Shown here one piece after another: positions 1 through 6,383 of a stretch of DNA of 6,383 nucleotides. The notes beneath the pieces are model-generated. The model worked only from the letters and a program-made list of their open reading frames with translations. It was not told the DNA's origin and did not search any database. Numbering within the stretch: the first letter of the stretch is position 1; every line of letters begins with the position of its first letter. Source of the stretch: an uncultured archaeon (GTDB lineage: Archaea; Asgardarchaeota; Jordiarchaeia; Jordiarchaeales; Jordiarchaeaceae); the NCBI GenBank assembly GCA_964510585.1, contig CAZECW010000211.1:1-6383 (forward strand). Reading direction: 5' to 3'. The position numbers were made by a program, and so were the translations under genes.

Positions 1-1
1 C

Positions 2-241
2 TGTCTGCACTATGATAAGATGTGGTTTGATTTTCCAGACTGGGACAAAATTAAGGCTGGCCCTCCAGACGTTATTGCTGCCTATGAGAAGGAGAGGTAC
101 AAGATTGCCTGTTCTGACCCCAAGAGCAAGTACTGGAACCCCGGACCCAGTGACTACTGGATACCTATGGAGCACTACCAAGCCTGGGTTGACGCCTGCA
201 AAAAGTATGGTTCCTATCCAAAAGGCTGGGAGCAACCATAA
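2..241 (+). CDS. 3' end of an unidentified protein, probably truncated by the window edge; Trp/Tyr/Pro-rich C-terminus
   Basis: Frame 2 is open from base 2 (CLHYDK then MWFDFPDW...GWEQP) to TAA at 239-241. There is no SD before ATG20, so the true start is probably upstream. It is followed by an AT-rich intergenic region. I recognise no family motif. Confidence 0.7.
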   Translation, partial: CLHYDKMWFDFPDWDKIKAGPPDVIAAYEKERYKIACSDPKSKYWNPGPSDYWIPMEHYQAWVDACKKYGSYPKGWEQP

Positions 242-256
242 AACAAGTTTTATAAA
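241..256 (+). promoter_or_regulatory. Candidate archaeal BRE/TATA promoter for the SCP2 gene
   Basis: A purine-rich AAACAAG (241-247) is followed by TTTTATAAA (248-256), about 50 nt upstream of the TTG start at 306. Confidence 0.5.
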
Positions 257-290
257 CATTCCATTTAATTTGATAGTTAGTGTTTGATTA

Positions 291-305: not shown

Positions 306-698
306 TTGGCGACTATAGAGGATTCAGACGCCTGTTTTCATTTTGGCGTTGAGAGAATTAAGAAAATACATGAGGAAGGCTTAGGTGTGGGGTGGAACCC
401 CTTTACAGTGGTTATGTGGCTTGAGGACTTGAAAAGGGGATACTGGTACAAGTTTAAGAAAGACGGTATTCTTGAGGATGCAAAAATAGTTACTGGCGAA
501 CCACCGGAAGCCACAGCTGTTGTGTATATGTCGAGTGATGATTGGGTTGGCCATCACACGAAAGAAGTGGATCTGGCTGAAAAGTACTTTTCAGGCGAAA
601 TGAAGGTTAAGGGTGATGTAGTAGTTCTACAACAGTACCAAACCTATGATTCCTACGAACCCTACTATCCTCCGGGACATCCTAAACACAAAAAATAA
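306..698 (+). CDS. SCP2 (sterol carrier protein 2-like) lipid/acyl-CoA binding domain protein, 130 aa, TTG start
   Basis: The size fits, and the SCP2-like C-terminal half is present: 'ATAVVYMSSDDW....EVDLAEKYFSGEMKVKGDVVVL' (G-x-[ML]-K-[VI]-x-G-D). It has a good SD. Confidence 0.75.
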   Translation: MATIEDSDACFHFGVERIKKIHEEGLGVGWNPFTVVMWLEDLKRGYWYKFKKDGILEDAKIVTGEPPEATAVVYMSSDDWVGHHTKEVDLAEKYFSGEMKVKGDVVVLQQYQTYDSYEPYYPPGHPKHKK

Positions 699-712
699 TC
701 GAAGCCGGCAGA

Positions 713-727
713 ATCCATTGAATGGAT
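713..727. repeat. Perfect 7-1-7 inverted repeat ATCCATT-G-AATGGAT
   Basis: Seen directly, 14 nt after the SCP2 stop in the convergent intergenic region. Confidence 0.6.
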
Positions 728-736
728 AAGAAATTT

Positions 737-779
737 GGGGATAGGTAACTGTCCCCTTCCCTAATTTCATCCCTTTTTT
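737..779 (+). terminator. GC-rich hairpin with GUAA tetraloop followed by a T6 tract; candidate terminator between convergent genes
   Basis: GGGGATAG-GTAA-CTGTCCCC (737-756) gives 8 bp with one G-U pair and a GNRA loop. TTTTTT follows at 774-779. Confidence 0.5.
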
Positions 780-871
780 GGCTCATTCTTCGATGTTTAA
801 CTTGCAACGTCACTTGTTTCTAGATTCTTTTTTCTGTGAAATTATTGTCTTTATGCGCTGATTTGTTGAAG

Positions 872-2557
872 TTACACTGTTTGTGGTTTGAATTCTCCAA
901 AAACTTCTCTTAAAACTTGGCATATTTCCCCCAGTGTGGCGTAGGCTTTAACTGCTTCTATTAGGGTGGGCATTAGATTGCATTTTTCCTGCTTCGCCTC
1001 TTCTCGTAGCTTTTCAAGGAGGCTGTCCACCAGTCTATTGTTGCGTTCCTCTTTTATTTTTTTGAGATTGGAAATTGCCTCCTTTTCGATTTGTGGGTCT
1101 AATTTGTGTAGGGATAATTGAAGCTTTTCATCTGTTTGAAACTTGTTAACTCCTACAATGATTCTTTCGCCCCTTTCTACTTCCTTCTGGTAATTGTAAG
1201 CCATTGAGGCTATTTCCTTCTGAATATACCCCCTCTCGATGGCCTTCACCATTCCCCCCATTTCATCAATTTTCCTAATGTATTCCAATGCTTGCTCTTC
1301 AAGTTTGTCTGTCAGCGTTTCTATAAAGTATGAGCCTCCAAGTGGGTCTATGGTTTTTGTGACTCCGCTTTCGTAGGCTATTATCTGCTGGGTTCGCAGG
1401 GCTATTCTTACGGATTCCTCGGTTGGGAGGGCTAGGGCTTCATCCATGCTGTTTGTATGTAGGGATTGGGTTCCGCCTAGGACTGCGGCTAGTGCTTGAA
1501 TTGTTACTCTTATTATGTTGTTTTCTGGCTGTTGAGCGGTTAGGGTTGAACCTGCGGTTTGGGTGTGGAACCTTAATTGCAGGGAGCCTTCCTCCTTGGC
1601 CTTAAATCTGTTCTTCATTATTTTGGCCCACATTCTTCGCGCTGCCCTGAATTTTGCTATTTCCTCAAAGAAGTCGTTGTGTGAGCTGAAGAAGAAGGAT
1701 AATCTTCCTGCGAATTGGTCTATGTCTAATCCTCTCTCTAAGACTGCGTTCACATATGATATTCCGTTTGCGAGGGTGAAGGCAATTTCTTGGACGGCGT
1801 TGGCACCAGCCTCCCTAATGTGGTATCCTGAAATTGATATGGGGTTCCATCTGGGCATGTTTTTGGTACAATATTCTATTACGTCGGTAACCAGCCGCAT
1901 AGAGGGTTTTGGGGGGAAAATGTATGTTCCCCGGGCAACGTACTCCTTGAGAATGTCGTTTTGAACTGTCCCTGCAAGTTTTGAAATGTCAACTCCCTGT
2001 TTTTGGGCAACTGCAATATACATGGCTAATATGATTGCGGTGGGAGCATTAATGGTCATTGAGGTGCTAACTTTGTCTAGCGGTATCCCCTCAAAAAGGG
2101 TTTCCATATCCTTTAGGGTGTCAATTATTACTCCAACTCTTCCAACTTCTCCCTGGGCAAGTGGGTGATCTGAATCGTATCCCATCTGTGTAGGAAGATC
2201 AAAGGCCACACTGAGGCCAGTTTGCCCCTGCTCAATAAGGTACTTGAACCTCTTATTGGTTTCCTTGGCTGAAGCGAATCCAGCGTATTGCCGCATGGTC
2301 CAGAGTCTTCCCCTATACATGGTGGGGTAAACGCCTCTAGTGTAGGGGTACTCTCCTGGAAAACCTAGCTCCTCAACATAGCTTTTTCCGATTCTGTCCA
2401 ATGGAGTGTAAAGTCTATTCAAAACTATTCCAGAGGCGGAGAGGAATATTTTCTCCCGTTCAGGATTTTTCTCTAAAAACTTACTGAGCTTTTCCTTCTC
2501 CCACTTCTCAAGTCCTTTTTTTAGACTCTGCAATTCTTCACCATCATCCTCAGACAT
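872..2557 (-). CDS. mcmA: Methylmalonyl-CoA mutase, large (substrate-binding, N-terminal domain) subunit of a split enzyme, about 561 aa
   Basis: Family motifs are present: [78 protein letters not shown] and [11 protein letters not shown]. There is no DxHxxG cobalamin domain. I prefer ATG 2557 over TTG 2563 because GAGGT (2569-2565) is 7 nt from the ATG and only 1 nt from the TTG. Confidence 0.95.
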
Positions 2558-2564
2558 TTTCAAA

Positions 2565-2571
2565 ACCTCTA
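2565..2571 (-). promoter_or_regulatory. SD (GAGGT) for the mutase, overlapping the DUF35 stop codon
   Basis: The minus strand reads TAG-AGGT-TTTGAAA-ATG, so the TAG stop (2571-2569) shares its G with GAGGT. Confidence 0.75.
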
Positions 2572-2940
2572 AATAGGTTCAAAAATAATTCCTAGGGCTG
2601 GTTTGCCCTCTGAGTCCACTGATACTTGCCCATATGTGGGTTTGACCCTCATCCCTATTTCGACCTTTTCCTTCTCGGAGATCTGGCCGAAGATTCTCAC
2701 CCCATTATCAAATTCCACTATACCGAATACGTAGGGTGGTTCACCCTTCAGGGTTTCGGGGAGGGCGTATAGCTTTGTGAATGTTATGACTTTGCCGCTA
2801 TCTAAAGGTTCAGGGTAAATGTCTTCAAATTCTGAGGCTCTACACTTAATACATTTAATCCTTCCCGGATACTGGATTCTACCACACCTTTTACATTTAA
2901 TTCTCCGAAGCTCTTCCATCATTTTCTCCTTATTTTCCAT
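2569..2940 (-). CDS. DUF35-family Zn-ribbon + OB-fold protein (ChsH2-like acyl-CoA-binding scaffold), about 123 aa
   Basis: Two CxxC pairs (CKRC...CIKC) are followed by 'GKVITFT', '[19 protein letters not shown]' and 'VEIGMRV'. I moved the start from TTG 3000 to ATG 2940 because GGGTGAT (2953-2947) is optimally spaced from it. Confidence 0.9.
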
Positions 2941-2946
2941 CTGGTA

Positions 2947-2953
2947 ATCACCC
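2947..2953 (-). promoter_or_regulatory. Shine-Dalgarno site GGGTGAT for the DUF35 gene
   Basis: It lies 6 nt upstream of ATG 2940. Confidence 0.7.
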
Positions 2954-3265
2954 ATAAATAGGCAGAGAGAATCAATAATTAGAGTGTAGCTATTCACCAA
3001 TATTAAACTATTTCAGCACCTCCAAAAATAGCAGGCCTAATTTGATAAAATGTGTGCCAAAAGGTTTGTAGTGTAAATCGTCCGGAGCGGGGGTTTAATT
3101 TTTGGATAGAGGTTCTATTCTTTTCTATAGAAGTCCTAAATATTTTTTCTTTTGTCCAAAGAAGCCCCTTTTACAATTTATTTTTAGGGATACCTGAAGC
3201 AGCCAAGCCAAATCATCCATCAATTACTTGTATCCCAAAAGTCAGAGACCTTTTTATGCCTAACC

Positions 3266-3277
3266 AAAAAAGAAAAA
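3266..3277 (-). terminator. Archaeal oligo-T terminator after the SDR gene
   Basis: The minus strand reads TTTTTCTTTTTT, starting 12 nt after the SDR stop. Confidence 0.6.
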
Positions 3278-3289
3278 GTTTTGGGTTCT

Positions 3290-4240
3290 CTAAATTAAAC
3301 CCACTTTTTTGAAAATGTCGATAAACTCTGGGTTTGGGGGAGCCTTCTTAATCAATTCTTTGAGTCTGGGGCCTAATTCCTCGGGCGTCCAAGTGCCGTT
3401 CTTCTTCACCTCTCCCACATCATGCCAAGACTGTAAGAGGAAAACAGTACCCCCAACAAGTCTAATCACCCTACCTGTAATGTCTTTTGCGTCGTCTGAA
3501 GCTAAATAAACCACCAGAGGGGCAAGGTTTTGGGGTCCCAGCGGGTCGTACCCAAACCTTTTAGTCATCTCTTCGGGAGTGCTCATTATAGGCGCTATAG
3601 AAGGAGTCGCCTCCGTCGTCAACCTGGTCCTAGCCACAGGAACTACAGTATTTGCAGTCACCCCATACTTCGCCATTTCCTTCGCCACGATATTCGTGAA
3701 AGCCACGATTCCAGCCTTGGCAGCCCCGTAATTGCTTTGACCTGGATTATAGAGCAAGCCCGCATCGGAAGCAGTGTTTATTATTCTTCCTGCTACGGGT
3801 TTTCCTTCTTTGGATTGGGCTCTCCAGTAGTTGCAGGCGTGTCTGGTGCAGTTGAATGTTCCCTTGAGGTGAACGCCTATCACTGCGTCGAAATCTTCCT
3901 CTTCCATGTTGAATATCATTTTGTCTCTTAGGATTCCGGCATTGTTGACCAGTATGTCCAATTTTCCGAAGGTGCTAATAGCCTGGTCAATTATCCTCTT
4001 TGCTCCCTGGAAGCTTGTGACGCTCTCATAGTTGGGGGCTGCTTCCCCTCCCATCTTCTTGATTTCGTTTACCACCTCGTCAGCGGGACCATGAAATTCA
4101 CCCTTCCCATCATAGCTTCCGCCCACATCATTAACAATCACTTTCGCCCCATACTTTGCAAGGAGTAAGGCTTCTTCGCGTCCTAAACCTCTTCCAGCGC
4201 CAGTAACTATAGCTACTTTACCTTTAAGTGATATTGGCAT
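3290..4240 (-). CDS. Classical SDR oxidoreductase, MFE-2/HSD17B4 (3-hydroxyacyl-CoA dehydrogenase)-like and Rv3548c-like, probably NAD(H)-dependent, 316 aa
   Basis: It has TGAGRGLG, VNDVGG (acidic residue at the end of beta2, suggesting NAD), NNAGILRD, VHLKG, Ser158, Y171-x3-K175 (YGAAK) and ARTRLT. Confidence 0.92.
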   Translation of the reverse strand: MPISLKGKVAIVTGAGRGLGREEALLLAKYGAKVIVNDVGGSYDGKGEFHGPADEVVNEIKKMGGEAAPNYESVTSFQGAKRIIDQAISTFGKLDILVNNAGILRDKMIFNMEEEDFDAVIGVHLKGTFNCTRHACNYWRAQSKEGKPVAGRIINTASDAGLLYNPGQSNYGAAKAGIVAFTNIVAKEMAKYGVTANTVVPVARTRLTTEATPSIAPIMSTPEEMTKRFGYDPLGPQNLAPLVVYLASDDAKDITGRVIRLVGGTVFLLQSWHDVGEVKKNGTWTPEELGPRLKELIKKAPPNPEFIDIFKKVGLI

Positions 4241-4243
4241 CTT

Positions 4244-4251
4244 ATCACCCC
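4244..4251 (-). promoter_or_regulatory. Shine-Dalgarno site GGGGTGAT for the SDR gene
   Basis: It lies immediately upstream of 'AAG ATG' at 4240. Confidence 0.7.
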
Positions 4252-4316
4252 ATAAAAACGATATCTACTAGTCATTTTAGTATGATTTTGGTGAACTCTT
4301 TCATAAGCCTTTCTAT

Positions 4317-4359
4317 GTACATAAATGTACTAATAATTATGTTGATATATCACATAATT
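4317..4359. promoter_or_regulatory. Two adjacent palindromes upstream of the SDR gene; candidate operator sites
   Basis: GTACAT-AA-ATGTAC (4317-4330) and AATTATG[T]TGATA|TATCACATAATT (4335-4359, 12-bp arms with one bulged T). Confidence 0.55.
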
Positions 4360-4379
4360 TGGGTAGGATCTAGGAGGGT

Positions 4380-5186
4380 TTATTTTCTTGGACGGTAATC
4401 AAGACTCCTCATATTTGAGGGATCTATTCTTTCTCTTATTAGTTTAATTTGGTTAACTGTAGGTGGTTCTGTCTCAGGAATCTTCTCAGGAAGTAAGAGG
4501 GGGAATCCAGTGTTCTCCTTTACTTCATTCAAAGATACGCCTTTGTGTATAGATTCTAATCGCATTTTTCCACTCTTCTCGTCGAATCCCATCACACAGA
4601 GGTCGGTGATTACTTTGCATGGGCCTCTGCCACTGATTTTTAGGTTTTTTCTCCACTTACCCTCTTCTAAGTGCCCGGGACCTGTGATGAAATCGACTTT
4701 TTCGACGAAGACTCTGGGCTCATGTCTAGGTACGTAAACGAGAAGCCGTCCGCATAGGTGTGCCACGTCGCCTATTGCTACGCCTCCTGGCAGCCGAACT
4801 TTAGGTTTAAAGTAATCTCCCACCACACTATTATTGATGTTACCATATTGGTCTATTTGGCCTGGTCTTATGATTCCAAAGTCGATCTCTCCCCTCTGCC
4901 AGAGGTCGTGGAGGTCTGTTAACTTTATGAGAGCCTCAGCTTTAATGGTTTTAAAGGCAGTAGGGTCAGCCATCACCGCCATATAGTTTGTGTAAGGATC
5001 AGGGTTAACCCACATTCCATATATGCAGATAAGATTCGGTGCGTGGGTTACGCGAGCAAGCTGAGTTGCTATCACTCCAATTGGGGTTGCTGCACCTAGA
5101 TACATTTTTTCTCCATCTCTCATTTCTCGCGCCAAACTCACAATCATTAATTCGTCTATGCCATAATCTTTGGCGTATTCCGACAT
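4380..5186 (-). CDS. Class I CoA-transferase-fold beta subunit (GctB/IpdB-like) apparently lacking the catalytic Glu, 268 aa
   Basis: Family motifs are present: ELMIVSLARE, THAPNL, QIDQYGNIN, GDYFKPKVRLPG, HEPRVFVEKVDFITGPG, VITDLCVMGFD, VKENTGF and IRERIDP. Where GctB-like proteins have 'xxYESG', this one reads 'ICIYGMW'. Confidence 0.88.
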   Translation of the reverse strand: MSEYAKDYGIDELMIVSLAREMRDGEKMYLGAATPIGVIATQLARVTHAPNLICIYGMWVNPDPYTNYMAVMADPTAFKTIKAEALIKLTDLHDLWQRGEIDFGIIRPGQIDQYGNINNSVVGDYFKPKVRLPGGVAIGDVAHLCGRLLVYVPRHEPRVFVEKVDFITGPGHLEEGKWRKNLKISGRGPCKVITDLCVMGFDEKSGKMRLESIHKGVSLNEVKENTGFPLLLPEKIPETEPPTVNQIKLIRERIDPSNMRSLDYRPRK

Positions 5187-5199
5187 TTCTCATCCCCTT

Positions 5200-6048
5200 T
5201 TAGCTCTTTTTCACTTTTTTCAGGTATTCTTCATGATCCTTAACTGAGTAAATGTACTTATCTAGGTACTCTTCGTAAGCTTTAGGATTACTAGAAGCTA
5301 TAGTGTATTCTGTAATGTGGGGAACATCCATAGTATATAGCGGCAGAAAACCAGTTGGATGAGCACCATAGGGCGCCTCCACTACAAGGTCAACTTCATA
5401 TTTTGGTAACATTAATCTTGTATCTTTTTCCGGTTCTCCTTTCACTACCTTCTCCACAGTAACTATTGTTTTCTTGGCCGCTTGGGCAAATGCTACCAAT
5501 AAGTCAGTCATTATCTGGGATTCTAAGGCGTAAATGTTTCCAAGGGAATCGCACTGATATGCATGTATAAGCGCAACGTCAAGTTTGGTTGCTGGCACCG
5601 CTACAGTTTTTTGGTTTGTTATGGGGCAGTCAAAAACTTTAAAGTCCGTATTAACTTTCAGCAGATCTGAACCCAGAAGTGACCTAGTAGGTAGGAAGCT
5701 CACCCCCATAGCTGCAGCTCTGAGGCCCAAAACGAAGGTCAGTTCACTATACTCTTTGAAACTTATTTCACCGTTCTGAACTTTGCTGCGGAAGTTTTGG
5801 GCAAAGCCCATCATCGGGAAACCCACGTAGGCCGCGCAGATTCTTTTAGAACAACCGGAGCCCACCAGCAGATCTACATCTACATCACCCATAAGGGAGT
5901 ATACTGTCAAATCTGTAATTTTTTGTCTCACGATCTCTCTTACGGCGGCCATAGGTTTATAGACAAGAGATGCTCCACCTATTCCTATAGAGTCTCCCCT
6001 TTTTATCTCACTGACTGCTTCTTGTAAACTCACAATCTTTTTCCTCAT
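5200..6048 (-). CDS. Class I CoA-transferase-fold alpha subunit (GctA/IpdA-like), about 282 aa
   Basis: Family motifs are present: SLQEAV, GDSIGIGG, KPMAAVREIVRQKITDLT, RAAAMGVSFLPTRSLLGSDL, DVALIHA, IVTVEKVV and VVEAPYGAHPT. I prefer ATG 6048 over TTG 6054 on SD spacing (GAGGT at 6060-6056). Confidence 0.9.
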   Translation of the reverse strand: MRKKIVSLQEAVSEIKRGDSIGIGGASLVYKPMAAVREIVRQKITDLTVYSLMGDVDVDLLVGSGCSKRICAAYVGFPMMGFAQNFRSKVQNGEISFKEYSELTFVLGLRAAAMGVSFLPTRSLLGSDLLKVNTDFKVFDCPITNQKTVAVPATKLDVALIHAYQCDSLGNIYALESQIMTDLLVAFAQAAKKTIVTVEKVVKGEPEKDTRLMLPKYEVDLVVEAPYGAHPTGFLPLYTMDVPHITEYTIASSNPKAYEEYLDKYIYSVKDHEEYLKKVKKS

Positions 6049-6055
6049 ATTCAAA

Positions 6056-6060
6056 ACCTC
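6056..6060 (-). promoter_or_regulatory. Shine-Dalgarno site GAGGT for the alpha subunit
   Basis: It lies 7 nt upstream of ATG 6048. Confidence 0.7.
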
Positions 6061-6066
6061 TCCATC

Positions 6067-6080
6067 TCCTTAATTAAGGA
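6067..6080. promoter_or_regulatory. Perfect 14-bp palindrome TCCTTAATTAAGGA just upstream of the alpha-subunit SD; candidate operator
   Basis: Seen directly. A second TTTAATTAAA palindrome lies at 6125-6134. Confidence 0.5.
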
Positions 6081-6250
6081 TTCACTCCCAAAAACGTAGA
6101 TAATCCTTAAAATTTTTCACCCAATTTAATTAAAATACAGATTCAACCGACTTAATAGCTCATCGCTCTAATAATTTTAATGTTCAATTACTTATTCTGC
6201 CTGACCTTCAGGCCACAATTTCTTTTGCTCGAGGGTATCCGTATTTTTAC

Positions 6251-6383
6251 AAAACCTTGGCGAGAAAGCCCCCGACTTTAGTCGTGGGGATGAATCGCCA
6301 GAAAGTTTATTTGAAAGTATGGTATATAAATAGTTGTTGGTAGCTGAAGGGTTTGGCTTGGGCTTAAGAGGCTAAACAAGACG
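6251..6383 (+). mobile_element. Left end of an IS200/IS605-family (IS608-like) element or derived MITE, running off the window
   Basis: TTAC (6247-6250) is followed by AAAACCTTGGCGAG, then AAAG (6265-6268) at the foot of an imperfect hairpin CCCCCGACT-TT-AGTCGTGGGG (6269-6289). An outer stem TGGCGA (6258-6263)/TCGCCA (6295-6300) encloses it. This matches the IS608 left-end layout: TTAC cleavage site, AAAG guide and subterminal hairpin. Confidence 0.8.
6323..6332. promoter_or_regulatory. TATA-like element inside the IS end, readable on either strand
   Basis: The + strand reads TATATAAATA. The - strand reads TTTATATA (6330-6323), which fits the archaeal TTTAWATA consensus. Confidence 0.4.

Follow-up and report, generated by a model that had tools for sequence, protein, structure and literature searches.

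What reaction is carried out by a class-I CoA-transferase-fold pair that lacks the catalytic glutamate of its fold, and which pathway does it serve in an archaeon? The question is raised by contig CAZECW010000211.1 of assembly GCA_964510585.1, a 6,383-bp stretch analysed here over its full length (the window), which is the entire contig C211 of a 3.78-Mb, 96%-complete metagenome-assembled genome (MAG) of an Asgard archaeon. The window encodes such a pair, hereafter CoAT1, together with a short-chain dehydrogenase/reductase (SDR), a DUF35 protein, the catalytic subunit of methylmalonyl-CoA mutase (MCM) and an SCP2-fold protein, and a first-pass annotation had proposed that the six genes form a single locus resembling actinobacterial steroid degradation clusters. 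We report that CoAT1 carries the active-site signature of IpdAB, the hydrolase that opens ring C of COCHEA-CoA, and that it belongs with the SDR to a ten-gene island. This island may constitute a module of the beta-oxidation type that includes a retro-Claisen C-C hydrolase and serves acyl-CoAs in which a ring or some other feature blocks breakdown, a reading for and against which the evidence seems to us evenly balanced. Throughout, G000 denotes the host MAG and G064 ‘Candidatus Jordarchaeia archaeon RPF2’; other G numbers are genomes, L numbers loci and C numbers contigs of G000. Related loci were searched for with an 18-sequence beta-subunit alignment as query.

For both CoAT1 subunits, the closest solved structures are GctAB, the glutaconate CoA-transferase of Acidaminococcus fermentans (1POI), then AibAB, the 3-methylglutaconyl-CoA decarboxylase of Myxococcus xanthus (5MZW-5N03), and then IpdAB (Rv3551/Rv3552; structures 6CO6/6COJ from RHA1 and 6CON from Mycobacterium tuberculosis). 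CoAT1 also shares the alpha-then-beta gene order of GctAB. The active site was read directly from the alignments. Where GctB has its catalytic glutamate in the motif IIVESG, the CoAT1 beta subunit reads CIY-GMW, with no acidic residue: Tyr56-Gly57 (codons 5016-5021) fill the site of the missing glutamate, and all CoAT1 beta orthologues keep this motif. The same motif aligns with Cys56 of AibB, a residue located from the four point-mutant chains 5N00-5N03, so that AibB and CoAT1 are both Glu-less at this site and differ there as Cys56 versus Gly57. In the alpha subunit, Glu104 (codon 5743-5745) aligns with the residue mutated in 6COJ_A, a position defined by the sole difference between 6CO6_A and 6COJ_A (Glu to Ala), and IpdA of M. 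tuberculosis likewise has Glu there; the equivalent residue is Gln in GctA and Gly in AibA. Glu104 is kept in 12 of the 12 sequences examined, which comprise orthologues and Heimdall/Hod relatives. We take the mutated position to be Glu105 of IpdA, the catalytic base of IpdAB, and catalysis by this base reportedly proceeds with no glutamyl-CoA intermediate being formed. Because the beta glutamate is lost, alpha Glu104 is conserved and the two states go together across further pairs (see below), CoAT1 is judged to have an IpdAB-type active-site layout, although orthology with IpdAB is not demonstrable. The first-pass description of an IpdAB/GctAB-like pair thus stands on the IpdAB side at both diagnostic active-site positions and not in overall sequence, where GctAB is at least as close as IpdAB; the best overall match is a glutaconate-type enzyme, yet the active-site layout is of the IpdAB type.

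The exchange of a beta for an alpha glutamate extends beyond CoAT1. The host genome encodes nine CoA-transferase-fold pairs; in the four that lack the beta glutamate, the alpha position is occupied by Glu, Glu, Val (with Asp one residue before) and Glu, and in the five that retain it by Asn, Asn, Asn, His and Met. The alpha glutamate accompanies loss of the beta glutamate across these pairs with one exception (on C118). Four plasmid-borne pairs were checked as well: two from Azospirillum and one from Halomicrococcus show the same pattern, and the Mycolicibacterium chubuense pair is ambiguous. Of 128 beta subunits that were selected for similarity to that of the window and placed in a tree, 97 lack the glutamate, and the 31 Glu-bearing sequences form one clade among diverse Glu-less groups. 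The annotation ‘glutaconate CoA-transferase’ is probably wrong for many of the Glu-less proteins. The surroundings of the plasmid homologues (Mycolicibacterium, Azospirillum, Halomicrococcus) are heterogeneous and indicate no substrate. A further Glu-less pair of the host adjoins a beta-keto acid cleavage enzyme (BKACE), two thiolases and two DUF35 genes (C139:14151-22288).

The pairing could also mean that CoAT1 is still a CoA-transferase whose catalytic carboxylate now sits in the alpha instead of the beta subunit. Neither the fold nor either subunit is damaged, GctAB is the best solved-structure match and, leaving aside the C118 and M. chubuense pairs, beta and alpha glutamates occur as alternatives. 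To our knowledge, however, IpdAB is the sole characterised enzyme of this fold with the carboxylate shifted to the alpha subunit, and there the fold has been turned to C-C hydrolysis; IpdAB displayed no CoA-transferase activity. Moreover, the island encodes a second pair, CoAT2, whose beta subunit keeps the catalytic motif ITECG and whose alpha subunit has Asn at the Glu104 position. Judged by this Gct signature, which CoAT1 lacks, CoAT2 is a canonical CoA-transferase, so that a genuine transferase is already available to the cell from the island itself. The alpha subunit of CoAT2 gives no match to IpdA at E<=1e-10, against 116 bits for that of CoAT1. We consider a relocated transferase activity quite unlikely.

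All six genes of the first-pass annotation were recovered as intact open reading frames (ORFs), and their family assignments hold. They are arranged as follows.

1-287, plus strand: 3' end of a core gene of about 448 aa, which continues in contig C206 (no Pfam family on the C206 part) and lies outside the catabolic unit.
306-698, plus strand: SCP2-fold small protein of 130 aa (PF02036, 24.7 bits against a cut-off of 21.3, E 3e-5).
872-2563, minus strand: MCM catalytic subunit (PF01642, 797 bits; TIGR00641, 850 bits), probably starting at the ATG at 2557.
2569-3000, minus strand: DUF35 protein with zinc ribbon and OB fold (PF12172, zf-ChsH2, and PF01796, OB_ChsH2_C), probably starting at 2940.
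3001-3289: intergenic stretch holding the boundary between core unit and island; homology to G028 ends at 2958 and restarts at 3266 as an SDR remnant.
3290-4240, minus strand: SDR of 316 aa, an MFE-2-type (3R)-hydroxyacyl-CoA dehydrogenase by family and the first island gene (NF005861/PRK07791, 376 bits against a cut-off of 373).
4380-5186, minus strand: CoAT1 beta subunit, class-I CoA-transferase fold (PF01144).
5200-6054, minus strand: CoAT1 alpha subunit, class-I CoA-transferase fold (PF01144).
6055-6244: divergent intergenic region, which in uninterrupted relatives (L013/G064) faces the second island arm.
6245-6383, plus strand: first ~138 bp of a ~275-bp IS200/IS605-type mini-element, protein-free and present in high copy, with repeat copies in the genome.

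The window ends on the right at this mini-element, and the contig is broken there because the element is present in so many copies. Its consensus is ~275 bp long and has hairpin-bearing ends; of the 86 copies that the genome contains, 58 lie at contig ends and 27 are internal. What follows was observed directly in RPF2, where the window genes continue past the divergent promoter into a second DUF35 gene (DUF35b), a thiolase, the CoAT2 alpha and beta subunits, an AMP-forming ligase and an NMO/FabK-like flavoenzyme. In the host assembly, this second arm is contig C129, with 99-100% identity to a near-identical strain (L009). In the latter, the arms are separated, within the divergent promoter region, by a gene for an IS66-family transposase and by a DUF2080 ORF (L009:8358-9002, JGI 3300045900 contig). 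From SDR to NMO, the island comprises ten genes in ~10.3 kb. Its thiolase is of the SCPx/archaeal type, DUF35b is BbsA-like, the ligase is of a generic medium- or long-chain type and the NMO protein is FabK-like (175 bits), as is the flavoenzyme IpdC. A FabK-like flavoenzyme and an SDR, as well as a thiolase and a ligase, are among the neighbours of both CoAT1 and IpdAB.

The order CoAT1 alpha, CoAT1 beta, SDR, DUF35, MCM is repeated in RPF2, with 90-96% amino-acid identity for every window gene, and in a third species (L077, 89%), so the arrangement is not due to chance. The island itself is patchy: it was found in two of the six genomes of the genus (G000 and G064), and G064 is the only one of the five other genus genomes with orthologues of CoAT1 and CoAT2 at 94% identity. 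The remaining four, G038 (closed), G028, G056 and G082, have CoAT1 and CoAT2 paralogues only, at no more than 52% identity. An insertion of the island in G000 and G064 was considered and rejected on the evidence of G028, where 375 bp from the 3' end of the SDR gene (71% nucleotide identity) survive between a D-2-hydroxyacid dehydrogenase gene and DUF35 (L073:6122-6496, G028:C384); in that lineage, at least, the island was therefore lost by deletion. In G028, a block of D-2-hydroxyacid dehydrogenase, IorAB and ACD genes abuts DUF35-MCM directly. Outside Jordarchaeia, the Heimdall/Hod homologues (45-48% identity) are solitary and lack this neighbourhood, one of them adjoining an MFS transporter gene. 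The conserved synteny for which the first-pass annotation had suggested a search in Asgard and other archaea is thus present in Jordarchaeia (G064, L077), while the Heimdall/Hod homologues stand alone.

The host can be assigned with confidence to the Asgard archaea (Jordarchaeia) of hot springs: RPF2 is its closest named genome, and the stretch is present in eight hot-spring DNA studies; no RNA study is listed among those that contain it, a result with no bearing on its expression. Eukaryote-like genes adjoin CoA-transferase-fold paralogues on other contigs, namely genes for a Ras-family GTPase that has a long extension at its N terminus and for a SNAP/TPR protein, in addition to a weak folliculin-like match (C118:6590-14145; C101:17004-17867; C148:10605-11108). 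The same contigs hold a weak, sub-threshold match to a Vps36 (ESCRT-II)-like protein. Nearest genome and eukaryote-like genes together bear out the archaeal origin that the first-pass annotation had given as putative. At the left end, positions 1-115 of the window are identical to the end of C206, and the G056 orthologue of the core gene is a 448-aa ORF immediately upstream of SCP2. A second copy of positions 1-243, 94% identical, is present at the far end of C206 (C206:4481-5156), together with a 68% SCP2 paralogue, and C206 additionally encodes a corrinoid (B12-binding) methyltransferase-type protein.

The closest solved structures of the SDR are 2ET6, the (3R)-hydroxyacyl-CoA dehydrogenase of Candida tropicalis MFE-2 (Fox2), the mycobacterial SDRs 3QLJ, 7ULH, 7LG9 and 4KZP, and HSD17B4, with 1GZ6 and 1ZBQ also among the best matches; the cofactor and catalytic motifs TGAGRGLG and YGAAK are present in the translation. 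Against 3QLJ it scores 276 bits, with the segments FDAVIGVHLKG, YWRAQSKEGK and RIINTAS aligned. These are the segments in which the first-pass annotation had seen a resemblance to Rv3548c, and that resemblance holds at the level of the family, since the top characterised match of Rv3548c is P22414, the Candida protein of 2ET6 (Crowe 2017, Table 1). Hsd4A has been modelled on the same MFE-2-type structures. By these matches, the SDR is an MFE-2-type (3R)-hydroxyacyl-CoA dehydrogenase of the family of Rv3548c and Hsd4A. The placement of ipdAB beside Rv3548c in M. tuberculosis, also invoked earlier, is correct: Rv3548c adjoins Rv3549c, echA20, ipdA, ipdB and ipdC (Crowe 2017). The window thus recalls peroxisomal MFE-2 (HSD17B4, C. 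tropicalis Fox2) and Hsd4A/ChsB1 in its type of SDR, with an SCP2-fold protein and an SCPx-type thiolase nearby as separate genes; unlike in MFE-2, these domains are unfused, and the island is without the MaoC hydratase that is present in its L012 version. An SDR paralogue on C148 has 83% identity.

We hypothesize that these genes work together on acyl-CoAs whose degradation would otherwise stall. The ligase or CoAT2 would activate a lipophilic carboxylic acid, the FabK/IpdC-like flavoenzyme would desaturate the acyl-CoA, hydration would fall to a hydratase encoded outside the island, and the SDR would oxidise the product to the 3-oxoacyl-CoA. Where a ring or branch blocks thiolysis, CoAT1 would cut the C-C bond hydrolytically in an IpdAB-like retro-Claisen reaction with alpha Glu104 as base, and the SCPx-type thiolase with DUF35 would complete the cleavage. 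Candidate substrates are cyclohexane- or cyclopentane-carboxyl-type acids, reduced aromatic acids and cyclic isoprenoid acids. The proposed cleavage would be analogous to that by IpdAB in the steroid pathway and by BadI or Oah in alicyclic and aromatic pathways. This scheme builds on the active-site signature and on the genes around CoAT1; from these, the hydrolase chemistry, the order of the steps and the alicyclic or blocked nature of the substrate are deduced. Three further observations were counted in its favour. First, canonical BadI and Oah were not found in the genome above their cut-offs (best 294.5 against 467.6 bits, and 118 against 464), despite the presence of gene sets resembling benzoyl-CoA reductase or 2-hydroxyacyl-CoA dehydratase. 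Second, the island has the same family set as ipdABC plus the DUF35 and thiolase genes of Sterolibacterium. Third, a CoAT1 orthologue of 72% identity (L012) lies with a MaoC pair, an NMO protein, an SDR, a thiolase with DUF35, SCP2 and two HGD-D genes; for the latter, the BzdN/O, HadB/C and double-cubane models all scored below cut-off, leaving benzoyl-CoA reductase versus 2-hydroxyacyl-CoA dehydratase ambiguous.

Several points weigh against the proposed hydrolytic module. GctAB outscores IpdAB for both subunits in HMMER comparisons (alpha, 138 versus 116 bits; beta, 102 versus 59 bits), the IpdAB matches as a whole ranging from 101 to 116 bits for alpha and from 49 to 59 bits for beta. Bacterial pairs with the same glutamate swap sit in sugar-acid-like clusters, and so no particular class of substrate can be read from the signature. 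Among the ten island genes there is no EchA20/BadI-type crotonase, hydratase or acyl-CoA dehydrogenase. Finally, CoAT1 orthologues of 69-74% identity occur in varied settings, beside a class III CoA-transferase or a nitroreductase. The host of CoAT1 also differs from those of IpdAB in being an archaeon of anoxic hot springs.

The other half of the window tells a different story. DUF35 lies immediately upstream of MCM in every genome of the genus (six of six) and in each of the four sister-family genomes that encode MCM. In the sister family, the order thiolase, DUF35, MCM is seen at three of the four loci, the fourth (L089) ending before any thiolase is visible. The arrangement also occurs in one genome of another Asgard family, and it is absent from 20 other Asgard MCM loci. 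In G038 (L069:13846-15939), L077 (4975-7047) and the database proteins P0121-P0123, DUF35 and MCM are fused into one protein of 684-697 aa, the fused relatives bearing the name ‘Candidatus Freyarchaeota’. SCP2 is found beside MCM in three genus genomes (G000, G064 and G056) and 5.5 kb away in G038. On this gene order, DUF35-MCM is a separate operon that is conserved across the order and distinct from the island with CoAT1 and the SDR. The six genes thus fall into two units, DUF35-MCM (with SCP2) and the patchy island, and not into the single cluster that had been proposed. Because DUF35-MCM is conserved and sometimes fused, the window DUF35 is best viewed as a partner of the mutase and not, as first annotated, as a ChsH2-like component of sterol side-chain degradation; a thiolase-fold or MaoC partner beside or fused to DUF35 was not found in the window, where MCM follows it. 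A predicted complex of MCM and DUF35 scored 0.00 in a run made with no controls, a result that weighs neither for nor against binding. We found no paper on a link between DUF35 and mutases.

The mutase itself appears to act on methylmalonyl-CoA. Its best solved-structure match is the 2-hydroxyisobutyryl-CoA mutase HcmA (4R3U), and this activity was considered and rejected, as the specificity residues are of the MCM type, in the motifs RQYAGF (Tyr), LSVAFD (Ala) and ARGTY (Arg); HcmA carries Ile and Gln where the window mutase has its Tyr89 and Arg207-type substrate residues. It is the sole MCM-type enzyme among three paralogues in the genome. The second, ICM-like paralogue (Phe/Gln; C29:1-2972) lies beside a Glu-bearing CoA-transferase-fold alpha subunit, and the third, a divergent one (C28:22018-27769), is accompanied by a 141-aa ORF, DUF35 and two thiolases, so that all three mutases are found in acyl-CoA clusters. 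The accessory proteins of MCM are encoded elsewhere, the B12 subunit at C98:8206-8634 (PF02310) and MeaB at C25:716-1690, next to a CobA/BtuR-type adenosyltransferase. In the order, 11 genomes including a closed one were searched for a PF01039 carboxyltransferase; all of them keep MCM, and none yielded the carboxyltransferase, while the same search was positive for 12 of the 14 controls. Thus, no known enzyme is available here to carboxylate propionyl-CoA to methylmalonyl-CoA, and the disposal of propionyl-CoA through MCM that the first-pass annotation had assumed is not borne out.

Since the order keeps the MCM set without a carboxyltransferase, some non-biotin enzyme must connect methylmalonyl-CoA, and this raises the question whether that enzyme is CoAT1. 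As an AibAB-like biotin-free decarboxylase, CoAT1 would act either on methylmalonyl-CoA together with the mutase and CoAT2, in a Sbm/ScpABC-type conversion of succinate to propionate, or on glutaconyl-CoA in a 2-hydroxyglutarate-type fermentation. This possibility gains appeal from the adjacent mutase and from the lack of biotin enzymes in the order; MeaB, the adenosyltransferase and the B12 subunit are retained along with MCM, and CoAT1, SDR, DUF35 and MCM are co-oriented in three species. AibAB, a Glu-less and non-transferase member of the fold (110 and 65 bits), shows that the fold can decarboxylate acyl-CoAs, its Cys56 being reportedly non-essential. A fermentation would be in keeping with the two HGD-D genes beside the L012 orthologue and the D-2-hydroxyacid dehydrogenase gene that flanks the island. 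The layout also recalls the E. coli sbm-ygfD-ygfG-ygfH operon (ScpA-ArgK-ScpB-ScpC), with a mutase adjoining a CoA-transferase and a possible biotin-free decarboxylase in an order devoid of biotin carboxyltransferases. The decarboxylase of that operon is, however, a crotonase, MeaB and the B12 subunit are here encoded elsewhere, and the DUF35 partner has no counterpart there. Any of the 25 crotonases of the host could be the ScpB-type decarboxylase. In addition, most of the order conserves DUF35-MCM but has no CoAT1, AibA has Gly where the CoAT1 alpha subunit and IpdA have a conserved Glu, neither AibC nor MvaS is found in the neighbourhood, and a decarboxylation would leave the SDR, NMO protein, ligase and thiolase without a role. 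Hence, we regard a decarboxylase function for CoAT1 as unlikely.

How much, then, remains of a steroid pathway? In its specific form, the first-pass reading would amount to degradation of steroid or hopanoid rings C/D of the HIP type, with propionyl-CoA disposal via MCM. The IpdAB-type signature, the Rv3548c/Hsd4A-family SDR, the IpdC-like NMO protein, the ligase, thiolase and DUF35 of the island and the nearby SCP2 are all consistent with such a pathway, and so is the layout shared with SEDNCHOL_10317-10321 of the anaerobic cholesterol degrader Sterolibacterium denitrificans, where a CoA-transferase-fold pair, a BbsA-like DUF35 protein, an SCPx-type thiolase and an NMO-family protein are adjacent. 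In contrast to the island, which adds CoAT2 and the ligase, the Sterolibacterium cluster goes on to an enoyl-CoA hydratase and acyl-CoA dehydrogenases, and it belongs to a proven steroid degrader. Of the HIP-pathway genes to be expected, a FabK/IpdC-like NMO protein, a ligase and a thiolase with DUF35 do lie past the right end of the window, whereas the island has no EchA20-type crotonase and no FadE-type dehydrogenase, and the sole MenB/BadI-like crotonase of the genome is on C62. MCM, DUF35 and SCP2 belong to a separate conserved unit, propionyl-CoA has no route to carboxylation in an order in which no carboxyltransferase was found, and CoAT1 does not resemble IpdAB more closely than GctAB. 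Nothing tested gave a pointer to steroids or hopanoids; markers for rings A/B and the side chain were not searched for. A steroid-specific role is, in our view, highly improbable. The earlier annotation is thus sustained in part: the likeness to IpdAB at the active site and to Rv3548c at the level of the family persists, and the single unit, the propionyl-CoA link and the steroid substrate are not supported.

Acyl-CoA enzymes are abundant in the wider genome, which encodes ~25 crotonases, 16 acyl-CoA dehydrogenases, 24 thiolases, 21 ligases and 10 NMO proteins; this abundance is in line with the published description of Jordarchaeia as organisms that oxidise fatty acids. Some crotonase and CoA-transferase-fold genes match their families across an in-frame TAG, TAA or TGA (C193:13231-13980, C144:3829-4308, C134:16337-17098, C38:31110-31841 and C10:3513-4250); these stops could represent mini-introns or recoding, both of which are on record for the lineage, or the genes could be broken.

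The finding has a bearing on three subjects. As the CoAT1 pair is small and intact, biochemistry on it would give a function to a large family of Glu-less proteins. DUF35, known as a thiolase scaffold, emerges as a conserved and sometimes fused partner of a B12-dependent mutase, and a whole archaeal order that keeps MCM without a biotin carboxyltransferase makes the biotin-free step directly searchable. For the organism, the broadest interpretation is a first archaeal ring-opening pathway for lipid-like acids by IpdAB-type hydrolysis; we found no paper on IpdAB-like enzymes in archaea or on steroid degradation in Asgard archaea, and we regard this interpretation as a long shot. If it were true, candidate substrates in hot springs would be isoprenoid acids with cyclopentane or cyclohexane rings, derived from the tetraether lipids of archaea, or fragments of hopanoids or steroids, and an Asgard archaeon would gain an oxygen-free route into cyclic lipids.

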